A program made the translations under genes and the position numbers. A stretch of 64,000 bases of DNA. Origin: a phage. Position 1 is the first letter of the stretch. Each line of letters begins with the position of its first letter. The DNA is taken from the sequence record PX104380.1; one strand, written 5' to 3'. Below the pieces are notes generated by a model. That model was not told the DNA's origin. It did not search any database and saw only the letters and a list, made by a program, of their open reading frames with translations. Positions 26,444 through 43,687 of this stretch are shown here, piece after piece.

Positions 26444-26465
26444 ATGGGGACCGAAAGGTCCCCAT
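26444..26465. terminator. bidirectional hairpin AUGGGGACC-GAAA-GGUCCCCAU between gene 54 and the convergent 96-aa ORF
   Basis: 9-bp stem, GAAA loop, T-run on plus side. Confidence 0.6.
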
Positions 26466-26469
26466 ATTT

Positions 26470-26760
26470 TTATTTACGGAATGAAATAAAAGCAGCAACT
26501 GAAGCAACTAAACTGTCTTCAATATAAACTTCAATTTTTACCGGAGCTTCTGATTCAAATTTACCTGTTACTACACCCTGAAAAATACTTTCAGTCTGTT
26601 TTGGCTTTGAAAAATTTTCAGAAGGAAAAATTCCGAACTTTTTATCTGTTCCGAAAATTTTAATAAATTCATCATAAACTGCTTCATTGAAAGCGTTATC
26701 AGCGGGAATAACGCCTTCAACGACGAGTTCTTGACCTAAAAAGCGCAAAGAAGATTTCAT
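26470..26760 (-). CDS. hypothetical protein, 96 aa (alt.-3 position)
   Basis: ATG with SD GAGGA; own early promoter upstream and terminator downstream. Confidence 0.6.
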   Translation of the reverse strand: MKSSLRFLGQELVVEGVIPADNAFNEAVYDEFIKIFGTDKKFGIFPSENFSKPKQTESIFQGVVTGKFESEAPVKIEVYIEDSLVASVAAFISFRK

Positions 26761-26791
26761 TTTGTGTTCCTCATGTTATGTCAGTAAAACT

Positions 26792-26821
26792 ACTATAACA
26801 CAATACGAGGGACTTGTAAAC
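26792..26821 (-). promoter_or_regulatory. T4-type early promoter (GTTTAC-N18-TATAGT, extended -10 TG)
   Basis: -35 GTTTAC fused to stop TAG of the upstream alt paralog; part of a 53-bp element 51/53 identical to 42044-42096. Confidence 0.55.
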
Positions 26822-28878
26822 TACATTTTGAACTTTTTAGACATTCCGTTAATGTTAACCAAAGAAGCCAAGATTTGAGAAACTTCGTTTTCCTCTTCTT
26901 TTGATTCTTCTACAAGGAATTGATTAAATCCAGCCATTGGACGAACTTCACCAGTTTCCATTAGATGGTCGCCATCATATACCGATTCTTCTAATTGTTC
27001 AGAAGGAGGAACGATTGTGCCTTCGATTAGATACTTGTTATAAGCAGTTTCTTTCATCATGTACGTACTCACTTTATTAATCTTCAGCAAAATTCCACGC
27101 GGTAGAATAACTTCAGCTTCCGATGGAAATCCTGATAAATGACCTGGAACGATAACTTTAACTCGTTCAGCTCCTTTAATTACCATACCTACATTAGTTT
27201 CAGCGTCTTCATTCGCATATGTAGAATGACTACCCATATGCATTAAATCTTCAGCATCAACTGAACCTTCTCCTTCACCAGAAAATACTGCTCCGGAATC
27301 ATCTAAGGCCATATAATTTTTACCATATTCACCGAAGATATTTGGCTTGAGTGAAGTAGATACAAAGTTCTTGAAATAGAACATTTTATTTTCTATATTA
27401 TGACGTAAAGTTTTAAAAGTAACTTCTTGGCCACGGTAAAGTGTAGTTCCCGGAGGAAGAACTGAACCTTTAGCAAATGCAGAATCCAACGTCTCAATGT
27501 GCTTAATAGCACGTTCCATATATTCTTCACGTGTAGAATCAGGTTTACCTAAAAGGAATGAGTTCATTTCAACATATGAATCTGCACAATAATCTTCAAT
27601 TACATCAGATTCAGCCTGAGTTAATCCTTTTGGAGTTACTTCAGTGCTTGCATATTCATATGCCTGAGCAGCAGATTCATCAATCAATTTATAAATTCCA
27701 TTCATTACAAATTGAATAATAGCTGTCTTTTCATCTGGCGTAGCTTTAGAACCTTTAACTAAATCATTGATAATTTTCTTAATAACATCAAAGCTATTAG
27801 AAATATTAATGTCAGCAAGATCGCTTAAAATTTTATCAGTTTTATAATCAAAGAATTCTTTATTCTTTAAATATTCTTGAGAACCTTGATATGTTATATC
27901 GCTCTGCAGCTTGATAGATGGATCACGTAAACGTGCATGGGCCAATGCAATATGATTTCGGAAGCTTTCGAGTTCATAATCACTAGATTTAAAACGAGAA
28001 GCGCTTCTCATACCGCCTATAGCTCCTTTGCTGAAGTTTGAACCAATCTGGATAACACCAGAGTTCATCGGACCTTCTGCTTTATATACCGGAACTTTAG
28101 ATTCAAACTCTTGATATTTCTTAGCAGCGAAGCTATCACCCTGAAGTGAAGCATCGACAGTAGAATATTGAGCTTGTGCTGCTAATCGACGACTAATTTT
28201 AGTTTTTTGAATAACAGCTTGATCCGTGCGCTTATCATTTTCTAAAGCAATAGAAGCAGCAACAGCGACAGCTTTAGGAACAGCATTACCGGTTTTAACA
28301 TCTACATAAACATCACCAACATTTGATTCAACTTTTGTGAATAACTCAGTTGAAATAGGAGGTACACCTGGAATGTCTTCTAAATTGGCATTTTTACGGT
28401 AAACCATAATATATGCGTACTTTTTATCATAATCCCAGATTTCCTTTAAAAGAACATATCGACCTGCTCCTTTAGTACGTACTAAACGGTCAGCAATAAC
28501 TTGCATTTGACGAGCTGCGCCATTTGTTTTACTTTTTAGTACGCGGAATAGGCATGCATCAATTTTATACTGCTTTATTGTTTGAAGAGCAGTATCAAAA
28601 ACAGCATTAATGACGCCAATTGGATTTCCACCCAAGTTTTTAAGTTTAACTAATGATAGTTTCTCATTAACACCTATCATTACGATATGCATCATTTTAT
28701 CGCCTGGCTTAACGTTTTTATTTGTATCACCGCCAGAGGTGTATGTACAAAATCTAAATCCAGGAAGCACGCTTTCTTCGCCGGCTTGAATAGCAAAAAT
28801 TTGTGGTATTTTATGCTTAGGATTTAAGTTAACAACCGGCGCCGAAGCGCCGTCAAATAATTCTGTAATAAGTTCCAT
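26821..28878 (-). CDS. Alt-like ADP-ribosyltransferase paralog (685 aa)
   Basis: N-terminus MELITELFDG highly similar to the upstream paralog; ART triad YRGQ / FVSTSL / SEAEVILPRG intact. Confidence 0.85.
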   Translation of the reverse strand: MELITELFDGASAPVVNLNPKHKIPQIFAIQAGEESVLPGFRFCTYTSGGDTNKNVKPGDKMMHIVMIGVNEKLSLVKLKNLGGNPIGVINAVFDTALQTIKQYKIDACLFRVLKSKTNGAARQMQVIADRLVRTKGAGRYVLLKEIWDYDKKYAYIMVYRKNANLEDIPGVPPISTELFTKVESNVGDVYVDVKTGNAVPKAVAVAASIALENDKRTDQAVIQKTKISRRLAAQAQYSTVDASLQGDSFAAKKYQEFESKVPVYKAEGPMNSGVIQIGSNFSKGAIGGMRSASRFKSSDYELESFRNHIALAHARLRDPSIKLQSDITYQGSQEYLKNKEFFDYKTDKILSDLADINISNSFDVIKKIINDLVKGSKATPDEKTAIIQFVMNGIYKLIDESAAQAYEYASTEVTPKGLTQAESDVIEDYCADSYVEMNSFLLGKPDSTREEYMERAIKHIETLDSAFAKGSVLPPGTTLYRGQEVTFKTLRHNIENKMFYFKNFVSTSLKPNIFGEYGKNYMALDDSGAVFSGEGEGSVDAEDLMHMGSHSTYANEDAETNVGMVIKGAERVKVIVPGHLSGFPSEAEVILPRGILLKINKVSTYMMKETAYNKYLIEGTIVPPSEQLEESVYDGDHLMETGEVRPMAGFNQFLVEESKEEENEVSQILASLVNINGMSKKFKM

Positions 28879-35355: not shown

Positions 35356-35385
35356 TATAATATCATATCCTGTACCAAAGTAAAC
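35356..35385 (-). promoter_or_regulatory. T4-type early promoter (GTTTAC-N18-TATTAT) with -10 inside the loop of an 8-bp inverted repeat
   Basis: -35 begins 2 nt after the upstream stop; inverted repeat GGTACAGG / CCTGTACC at 35346-35376. Confidence 0.5.
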
Positions 35386-35747: not shown

Positions 35748-35777
35748 ATACTATCACAAAGGAACCATACTGTAAAC
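35748..35777 (-). promoter_or_regulatory. T4-type early promoter (GTTTAC-N17/18-TAGTAT)
   Basis: GTTTAC and TGTGATAGTAT upstream of the 110-aa ORF. Confidence 0.45.
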
Positions 35778-38737: not shown

Positions 38738-38766
38738 TTTGTTTTCCTCATTTGTTTGGTAGAGCT

Positions 38767-38796
38767 ATAATATCACAACTCTACCGTAAAGTAAAC
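38767..38796 (-). promoter_or_regulatory. T4-type early promoter (GTTTAC-N18-TATTAT) with -10 inside the loop of a 7-bp inverted repeat
   Basis: inverted repeat GGTAGAG / CTCTACC at 38758-38785; -35 begins 2 nt after cd.3 stop. Confidence 0.5.
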
Positions 38797-41191: not shown

Positions 41192-41541
41192 TTAGAAAGG
41201 TCCTGGATGTCTTCTGCGAACTTGTTGAAGGAGTTGTTGATTTGTTTTTCAACCAACCCTGGCTTACGAGCCACCACATCCGCCTTCTTTGTGTCTTTGC
41301 GCAGTTTTTCATTTTCACGCTCAATAGCAGCAATCGCCTCACGATTTTTATTATTCATCGCATCAATATAATTATACTGAATTCGCAAATTATCTAATGC
41401 TAAGGCGTTTTCATTGGCTGTTTTTGTAATTTCAGTAACTGATGTTTCTAATCTTTCTACCTTATTTTTTAAAATAATAGATGTTCCGCCTAATGCTATT
41501 ACAATTAATAGCAAACCTGCTGTAGTATTACTTAATTGCAT
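41188..41541 (-). CDS. pseT.3: inner-membrane spanin (Rz-like)
   Basis: 117 aa; N-terminal TM helix AGLLLIVIALGGTSIIL then coiled-coil-like region. Confidence 0.7.
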   Translation of the reverse strand: MQLSNTTAGLLLIVIALGGTSIILKNKVERLETSVTEITKTANENALALDNLRIQYNYIDAMNNKNREAIAAIERENEKLRKDTKKADVVARKPGLVEKQINNSFNKFAEDIQDLSK

Positions 41542-42038
41542 AAAGTTTTAATAACCTCTACAATATCATCTTGAGAAAGACCGTTAATTAAAATATGATG
41601 TTCAGCCGGAGATTTAGAAATTTTAAAGCATGCCTCAACATCTTCTGCCATATCCGATGCACTACGATTTGGATTACTAATTCCAAGACGATGCTTTCCA
41701 GTCAAAGGATTAACGATGATATAGCATTTGCAGCTATTGATATGAACATTAGGTTGAGTCTGATTAATGAACACTTCACAATCATACTTAGCGAGTTGAT
41801 TTTCTAAAAAGACTTTCATCTCCTCAACCGCATCAGGAAGCATATCACGGGCTTGCTCAAGACGACGATTTCGATATTCTTTAATGGTCGTTTTCCGCTT
41901 GACTTGCTTAGCTAAATCTTTCTTAAGATCGGTGATATATCCAACTCGACGATTTCCTTTAAATACAGAAATCCCATCCGTAGTATCACCGTATGCTTCA
42001 ACAACCATTTCAGTAGTAATAAGCTGCAAATCCATCAT
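41532..42038 (-). CDS. alc: Alc, inhibitor of host transcription
   Basis: 168-aa ORF (T4 Alc about 167 aa); position between rnlA and spanins; early promoter and SD upstream. Confidence 0.8.
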   Translation of the reverse strand: MMDLQLITTEMVVEAYGDTTDGISVFKGNRRVGYITDLKKDLAKQVKRKTTIKEYRNRRLEQARDMLPDAVEEMKVFLENQLAKYDCEVFINQTQPNVHINSCKCYIIVNPLTGKHRLGISNPNRSASDMAEDVEACFKISKSPAEHHILINGLSQDDIVEVIKTLCN

Positions 42039-42066
42039 AAAGTCCTCATGTTATGTCAGTAAGACT

Positions 42067-42096
42067 ACTATAACACAACACGAGGGACTTGTAAAC
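42067..42096 (-). promoter_or_regulatory. T4-type early promoter (GTTTAC-N18-TATAGT) for alc
   Basis: part of the 53-bp element 42044-42096, 51/53 identical to 26769-26821. Confidence 0.55.
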
Positions 42097-42099
42097 AGC

Positions 42100-43687
<1,588 letters not shown>

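Follow-up and report, generated by a model that had tools for sequence, protein, structure and literature searches.

The 54-bp sequence that occurs twice on the minus strand of this phage DNA, upstream of alt.-3 and of alc, is a promoter-leader unit whose RNA is predicted to fold into a complete hairpin, built from the promoter's own spacer, that masks the Shine-Dalgarno (SD) sequence. The features reported here as new are this predicted masking hairpin, its retention with covariation at alc across genera, and what appears to be its transfer to the alt.-3 locus of Tequatrovirus, matched by a reciprocal event in phage VR5. The cassette is a modest variation on known T4 regulatory devices and not a gene-shuffling element. 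The window (the whole stretch of 64,000 nucleotides analysed, record PX104380.1) belongs to a Tequatrovirus (T4-like) of the RB32 type, and both repeat regions are 95-98% identical to hundreds of Tequatrovirus records. The features are collected in Table 1.

On the minus strand the repeat reads GTTTACAAGTCCCTCGT[A/G]TTGTGTTATAGTAGT[T/C]TTACTGACATAACATGAGGA (GTTTAC...GAGGA), and the two copies are identical at 52 of the 54 positions. The near-identical promoter-leader cassette of 53 bp proposed by a sequence-only reading is real, one base longer than described and located on the minus strand. With up to 3 mismatches allowed, as that reading had suggested for its 53-mer, a search finds the two copies in the window, and no match to the 54-mer is found in 100 dinucleotide shuffles. 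An ungapped scan of both strands of the window gives a mean of 14.6/54 matching positions (sd 3.2), the next best unrelated site reaching 30/54. Another bona fide early promoter (38743-38796) matches the repeat at only 29/54, and with other early promoters in the window at no more than 29-30/54 the likeness of the two copies lies far beyond promoter consensus, as had been claimed. The borders of the repeat are sharp, the flanks diverging at once 5' of G1 and 3' of GAGGA.

Both copies carry TTTACA-17-TATAGT with TGn, in agreement with the -35, -10 and extended TG elements read earlier. Each copy also directly follows the upstream gene. The stop codon of that gene includes G1 in copy A and is separated from G1 by 3 nt in copy B, and the ATG is located 6-9 nt downstream of the 54-bp unit. 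In the case of alc, the reading frame opens with two in-frame ATGs (ATGATG; 42038 and 42035), and public records give a product of either 168 or 167 aa. Copy A is present here as the rare A18/T34 haplotype (26804 and 26788), which is matched at 99% identity or better in 11 of 500 listed records; among the records listed, KIT03 and KMB42 match it exactly.

Table 1. Coordinates of the two cassette copies, their predicted elements, the neighbouring genes and related loci (positions refer to the window unless another record or locus is named).
Feature	Position	Strand	Remark
Cassette copy A, 54 bp, -35 through SD	26768..26821	-	5' of alt.-3
Cassette copy B, 54 bp	42043..42096	-	5' of alc; equals the genus consensus
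Promoter, copy A	26792..26821	-	GTTTAC(A) -35 at 26815-26821, TG at 26799-26800, TATAGT -10 at 26792-26797
Predicted start, copy A	26785	-	A; deduced from the -10 spacing
Promoter, copy B	42067..42096	-	-35 at 42090-42096, TG at 42074-42075, -10 at 42067-42072
Predicted start, copy B	42060	-	A; deduced likewise
Hairpin 5' arm, copy A	26797..26813	-	promoter spacer with anti-SD CCUC; 5' of the predicted start
Hairpin 3' arm, copy A	26766..26782	-	leader AUAACAU and SD GAGG (26769-26772)
Hairpin 5' arm, copy B	42072..42090	-	spacer with anti-SD
Hairpin 3' arm, copy B	42040..42057	-	leader and SD GAGG (42044-42047), lengthened by CUU from the alc flank
alt.-3	26470..26760	-	the 96-aa ORF; DUF5498-type, early gene of unknown function
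alc	41532..42038	-	inhibitor of host transcription
Gene 5' of copy A	26821..28878	-	intact 685-aa Alt paralog ('alt.-2' of RB32)
Gene 5' of copy B	42100..43224 (ORF 42100-43260)	-	rnlA (gene 63, RNA ligase 1 / tail-fibre attachment)
T4 cassettes (NC_000866)	starts 123093 and 136336	-	predicted transcription starts ~123057 and ~136300
alt.-3 mini-hairpin loci	L004 1252-1310; L005 1098-1155; L012 1161-1220; L013 1303-1362; L015 1314-1373; L082-L097		CCACA-nnnn-UGUGG

An RNA fold was computed for the stretch between -35 and ATG, with cassette positions numbered from G1 of GTTTAC. The predicted hairpin comprises ~20 bp and joins the -35/-10 spacer (CCCUCGUGUUGUGUUAU) to the leader and SD (AUAACAUGAGG): residues 10-25 of the spacer (UCCCUCGUGUUGUGUU) are paired with residues 40-54 (GACAUAACAUGAGGA), the anti-SD CCUC (11-15) facing the SD GAGG (50-53). 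The short GTTAT/ATAAC stem noticed in the sequence-only reading does exist, but it is merely the upper part of this longer, SD-sequestering structure. Both the -10 (25-30) and A37, the predicted start, occupy the apical or loop part of the hairpin, A37 being on the 3' side of the whole 5' arm. The free energy of the fold is -24.4 kcal/mol for the alc copy (z -5.3), -23.0 kcal/mol for the consensus alt.-3 copy and -16.8 kcal/mol (z -3.6) for the alt.-3 copy of the window, in which the A18 variant disrupts the G18-C47 pair and which gives the weakest hairpin of the 29 haplotypes considered below. In a 146-nt context of alc the hairpin dominates the fold (z -3.6).

The position of the predicted start implies two kinds of RNA with different access to the ribosome-binding site (RBS). 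By an ensemble estimate, opening the RBS on RNA from the cassette's own promoter costs 3.2 kcal/mol for alt.-3 and 2.9 kcal/mol for alc, whereas on read-through RNA the cost is 11.4 and 16.2 kcal/mol, respectively, with a probability of ~0 that the SD is unpaired. The extra cost on read-through RNA is thus 8-13 kcal/mol as a thermodynamic estimate. A terminator scan found no T-run after either hairpin and no terminator-like site in either cassette; since there is no terminator in the cassettes and nothing between them and the upstream ORFs, read-through from upstream is expected. The only hit of that scan is a bidirectional terminator-like hairpin (ATGGGGACCGAAAGGTCCCCAT, 26444-26465) where the 3' ends of gene 54 and alt.-3 converge. 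None of the Rfam 15 covariance models matches the window at the gathering score, the sole other match being a chance miRNA-like one (E 0.65). By inspection, the RegB target GGAG is absent from the cassette SD, GAGGA.

The early promoters at 35385, 35777 and 38796 (minus strand) are also placed inside hairpins in which the -35/-10 spacer forms the 5' arm (z -2.2 to -4.5). At 35777 the anti-SD UUCCUUUGU is paired with the SD ACAAAGGAG, which is thereby masked. The promoter-in-hairpin layout may be general among T4 early promoters.

Within Tequatrovirus the SD is paired in all 29 natural haplotypes (15 of alt.-3 and 14 of alc), with dG between -16.8 and -27.5, and one copy displays a compensatory path from C15-G50 through U15.G50 to U15-A50. 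For a wider view of alc, 39 loci were retrieved from IMG/VR with an Alc profile, yielding 29 distinct upstream sequences. An SD-sequestering hairpin of the same topology is formed by 21 of these (dG -15.6 to -25.7, z -3.4 to -6.7), the SD pairing with residues 8-14 just 3' of the -35 while the arm sequences differ (for example CUCCUCAU/AUGAGGAG, CCUCGUUUGUU/AACAAACGAGG, AAUCCCAUUUUGUU/AACAAAAUGGGGAUU and AACCUCUCAUUUU/AAAAUGAGAGGUU). In three others the spacer-leader hairpin stops just short of the SD, and five, RB69-like sequences included, are without a hairpin. With the structure missing or short of the SD in 8 of the 29 distinct alc sequences, the hairpin is dispensable.

MAFFT alignment followed by RNAalifold predicted no pairs for 16 alc upstream sequences, the arms being offset by 1-2 nt between lineages. 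Because of these register shifts an alignment-free swap test was used instead, in which 22 spacers were combined with 22 leaders. A spacer with its own leader gives a mean of -15.2 kcal/mol, as compared with -8.1 with a foreign leader, and none of 20000 permutations was as good. The own leader is the best of the 22 for 13 of the 22 spacers, in one case tied with another leader. Ungapped pairwise comparisons of alc sequences reveal 1-3 double compensatory changes per pair. Across genera the 3' arm follows the SD while the SD sequence itself varies (GAGG, GGAG, GGGG, GAGAGG).

The alt.-3 locus outside Tequatrovirus is different. No such hairpin is predicted for the 10 distinct alt.-3 sequences from there (dG -7 to -13, z 0 to -2.7), and the duplex of spacer and leader ranges from -1.8 to -10. 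All that these promoters contain is a conserved mini-hairpin of 5-6 bp in the spacer, CCACA-nnnn-UGUGG, with covarying stems (Table 1). The same mini-hairpin is present in the alc promoters of RB69 and of two other loci (L072 and L074).

The distribution of the 54-mer was followed by blastn against 50,697 phage records and comprises at least 500 records, all Tequatrovirus-like, with at least 999 places. Among the matches listed there are two copies per complete genome and never three, always before alt.-3 and alc; T4 has both. Exact-pattern scans found only 6 loci in IMG/VR and 10 in JGI metagenomes. Homologues of Alt.-3 itself are present in 837 records, of which 499 are at 90% identity or above and 338 below 60%. 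The gene order was compared in six Tevenvirinae from five other genera, namely RB69 (Mosigvirus), IME08 and VR5 (Dhakavirus), Marfa (Marfavirus), IME523 (Kanagawavirus) and Melville (Gelderlandvirus). In all six, 54 | alt.-3 <- alt and alc <- rnlA <- denA are unchanged, and an intergenic region of 56-68 nt with a GTTTAC-type promoter precedes both alt.-3 and alc. With such a promoter before both genes in all genera examined, the two promoters are ancient and positionally orthologous. As judged from the sequences, it is their near-identity, unlike the promoters themselves, that is specific to Tequatrovirus.

The suggestion that alt.-3 and alc are potentially exchangeable units does not survive this comparison: the cassette occupies two fixed loci in at least 500 Tequatrovirus records, and the neighbours are unchanged in the six Tevenvirinae. 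Flanking genes invariant among relatives are what the sequence-only reading had itself named as evidence against exchangeability. It is the regulatory cassette that moved, not the genes. The sole break of homology beside a copy is in the alt.-1/alt.-2 region of T4, where the T4-type match to the window ends at ~26840. The break corresponds to a 1,699-bp deletion inside the Alt paralog between 9-bp direct repeats CTAAAAAGT (28531-28539 and 26832-26840, minus strand). It is not due to a crossover within the cassette, its breakpoints being at the CTAAAAAGT repeats outside. The T4 alt.-1 and alt.-2 'genes' are leftovers of the 685-aa Alt paralog, produced by this deletion and a 1-nt indel (L001 2960-3400), and the paralog of the window is intact.

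The near-identity at two loci points to recombinational copying and not to promoter consensus. Identity to the outgroup loci, 63-77% for either of them, by itself leaves the direction of copying unpolarised. In the sequences compared the long SD-masking hairpin is a character of the alc locus, found at alt.-3 only in Tequatrovirus. Probably, then, the alc cassette overwrote the alt.-3 promoter-leader in an ancestor of Tequatrovirus, structural class being the only guide to direction. In VR5, the region upstream of alc is like that of IME08 alc as far as the -10, continues with 31 nt (CCTTAC...ATGAA) that equal the alt.-3 leader, and then returns to alc homology. This tract, CCTTACACAAACATGAGGAGAACATTATGAA, is absent from alc of the IME08/JS98 type (L012 17731-17786 as compared with L005 17327-17384). 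By its sequence, VR5 underwent an ectopic conversion of its own, which involved these two loci again but ran in the opposite direction, from alt.-3 to alc.

Both copies were compared in 24 Tequatrovirus genomes; the two loci have one and the same consensus (54/54), with no fixed paralog-specific difference. Seven variants (T15, A16, C27, A29, A32, A33 and A40) are common to both loci and could be recurrent GC->AT transitions. The alt.-3 copies differ on average by 2.5 positions from alc copies and by 3.0 from other alt.-3 copies. Nucleotide diversity of the cassette (0.035-0.065) is not below that of the flanking coding DNA (0.025-0.046). The permutation p for excess similarity of the two copies of the same genome is 0.010 in 16 haplotype-enriched genomes, 0.029 in all 24 and 0.72 in 14 that were not chosen by haplotype. 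We therefore argue for a single replacement that preceded the radiation of the genus; that conversion still goes on within it is not established. With respect to the concerted evolution of dispersed repeats, such as duplicated regulatory regions, by ectopic (non-allelic) gene conversion, the likeness lies in a short, sharp-bordered tract that is homogenised between unrelated flanks, and in independent events in two lineages, Tequatrovirus and VR5. The difference is that a single event before the radiation would fit Tequatrovirus too.

A separate arrangement is seen in VR25-like phages (L044, also L045 and L073; positions 320-650). There, rnlA is followed by a GC-rich stem-loop, AAGGGGUGUACAAGCCCCUU, that overlaps a -35-like TGTACA, then by a diverged duplicate of the first ~50 alc codons fused to an unrelated tail. 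The full alc comes last, with an SD and without a -35 and -10 of its own.

The sequence-only reading had compared the repeat to the promoter-early stem-loop (PeSL) cassettes of T4-type phages (Arbiol et al. 2010, PMC2839356; Comeau et al. 2014, PMC4122927). The likeness stands as far as composition (stop-bounded unit, sigma-70-type promoter, stem-loop over the -10, SD, ATG) and recombinational copying are concerned, but not as a marking of mobile genes. Like a PeSL, the cassette lies between genes, delimited by a stop codon on one side and a start codon on the other, with a sigma-70-like early promoter (TTTACA-17-TATAGT against the PST/T4 consensus TTTACW-N17-TAYWAT) and a stable hairpin that spans the -10 (dG -16.8 to -24.4 kcal/mol, z -3.6 to -5.3), and there is evidence that such units recombine with each other. 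Unlike a PeSL, it exists in only two near-identical copies, fixed in place between invariable flanking genes, and it is not found at indels or gene replacements that distinguish close relatives in hyperplastic regions, the T4 deletion having its breakpoints outside. Its stem-loop is long, AT/GU-rich and without a T-run, and the SD itself makes up the 3' arm, whereas the published role of PeSL stem-loops is that of a terminator or attenuator and recombination linker, not of RBS masking (PMC2839356; PMC4122927). The upstream stem-loop layout of the 2014 description is absent, no fold in the 79 nt upstream of either copy being better than shuffles (z ~0). Copies at near-identity number two; the promoter-in-hairpin architecture is shared by at least three further early promoters of the window (those at 35385, 35777 and 38796).

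We consider it rather likely that the cassette is a PeSL-type promoter-in-hairpin, ancestral at alc, which restricts translation to transcripts of the early promoter. In this model, for which promoter activity, start sites, translational blocking and the direction of conversion are what we infer, the 54-bp unit would be a self-contained cassette for early-gene expression, consisting of a predicted strong sigma-70-type T4 early promoter, a leader and an SD. RNA initiated at its own promoter (predicted +1 at A37) would lack the 5' arm, and the RBS would be accessible. Read-through RNA from the Alt paralog or from rnlA would hold both arms, and the ~20-bp hairpin would bury the SD. Translation of alt.-3 and alc would in this way be tied to the activity of the early promoter and insulated from upstream transcription. 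The hairpin device would be ancestral at alc across Tevenvirinae, and in the ancestor of Tequatrovirus the alc version would have replaced the resident alt.-3 promoter-leader, exactly from the -35 to the SD, by ectopic gene conversion. Both upstream genes serve late functions according to their annotation, the phage head taking up Alt-type proteins and RnlA/gp63 acting in tail-fibre attachment. The T4 classification puts alt.-3 and alc under early RNA and early protein, rnlA under early RNA and late protein, and the RNA of alt.-1/-2 under middle (PMC9697503, supplements).

The precedents for such a device are the T4 genes e, soc, 49 and I-TevI, in which a late (or middle) promoter lies inside an RBS-masking hairpin (Uzan & Miller 2010, PMC3014915); alc has no occurrence in that review. 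As in these genes, the SD is in a helix on long transcripts (predicted here for 29 of 29 haplotypes), an internal promoter is predicted to give proximal transcripts that lack the 5' arm and would be translatable, and the structure is kept in related phages, here with compensatory change. The promoters differ: those of the precedents are late or middle and delay translation, whereas that of the cassette is of the early -35/TGn/-10 type. The 5' arm is here the promoter's own -35/-10 spacer, and the predicted effect is translation restricted to the early phase. The cassette would resemble this family in its working; since its promoter is early and not late or middle, it is not a strict member.

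The published PeSL model (Arbiol, Comeau and Krisch) would make the two copies portable recombination linkers where genes can be gained, lost or swapped by excision and integration of mini-circles, and alt.-3 and alc exchangeable modules. The composition fits the PeSL description (PMC2839356), copying of the cassette from one locus to the other took place in Tequatrovirus and a second time in VR5, and the alc promoter region of VR25-like phages is rearranged, with a partial duplication of alc and a different GC-rich stem-loop promoter. We nevertheless judge this unlikely as an account of the repeat: at least 500 genomes carry two copies at the same loci, the flanking order is invariant in six other Tevenvirinae from five genera, and the neighbouring T4 indel arose at the CTAAAAAGT repeats and not in the cassette. 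In addition, the 15.3 kb between the direct repeats hold the essential genes 30 and 31, so that excision should be lethal. That the two copies were never copied at all, two independent early promoters having been driven by constraint to one optimal sequence, is highly improbable. The T4 early promoter consensus is unusually long (PMC2988021), and ACAAACA-UGAGGA-like motifs are common to the leaders of many early genes, but other early promoters in the window stay at 29-30/54, spacer and leader vary freely between genera, diversity in the cassette is not below that of the flanking coding DNA (the ranges given above), and the alt.-3 promoters of all other genera are of a different structural class.

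Other explanations concern the function of the hairpin. It might serve the upstream mRNA, of rnlA or of the Alt paralog, as an attenuator or terminator or as a protector of the 3' end, with the SD pairing incidental. Reporter assays have shown termination of transcription at PeSL stem-loops of RB49 (PMC2839356), in at least one deposited record (H100) both a 'terminator' and a 'promoter' are annotated where the match lies, and the alc copy is followed by CUUUAU. Against such a role, which we hold to be improbable, neither hairpin is followed by a T-run and the terminator scan is empty in both cassettes; moreover, the 3' arm tracks the changing SD across genera, which is unexpected if any stable hairpin would serve. 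An objection to the translational block itself comes from the upstream stop codon, which lies 0-3 nt before the -35, so that a terminating ribosome could open the anti-SD pairing, with coupling of translation in place of a block. On polycistronic RNA the SD would then become exposed only through unwinding of the anti-SD by the ribosome that finishes the upstream ORF, and translation of alc and alt.-3 would keep pace with that of the upstream gene and not be silenced. The geometry is suitable, with the stop at 0-3 nt from G1 here and at 0-8 nt in other genera, and with the anti-SD (positions 11-15) within reach of the terminating ribosome. Coupling is, all the same, a doubtful explanation, as the T4 rnlA protein is late and the Alc protein early, uncoupled in time (PMC9697503), and the experimentally studied T4 precedents of like architecture block translation and do not couple it (PMC3014915).

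A more general proposal, which we put forward as a speculation that may well fail, is that the Tevenvirinae possess a conserved, undescribed class of early promoters in which the spacer serves as anti-SD. Such promoters would act as translational insulators for selected immediate-early genes (alc, alt.-3 of Tequatrovirus and, probably, whichever gene the 35777 promoter serves), and these genes would be translated solely from promoter-proximal RNA and be silent on middle and late read-through RNA. In that case the repeated transfer of regulatory DNA from one to the other of alc and alt.-3, seen in two genera, would be due to selection for their joint expression, which might point to a functional connection of Alc with the uncharacterised Alt.-3.

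The two loci provide a clean natural example of a promoter-leader cassette moved between loci with base-pair-sharp borders. In phage engineering the unit could be of use as a portable 54-bp module for early expression, which should be insulated from its upstream context. The result also bears on Alt.-3, which a recent study connects with escape from CmdTAC defence (PMC11618068). Should the hairpin gate translation, this would account for the strictly early production of Alc, a potent host-shutoff factor, despite an unterminated gene of late function directly upstream. The cassette would then be an "early-only" counterpart to the "late-only" hairpins of e, soc, 49 and I-TevI, and at least some PeSL stem-loops would have to be reinterpreted as RBS masks and not as terminators.
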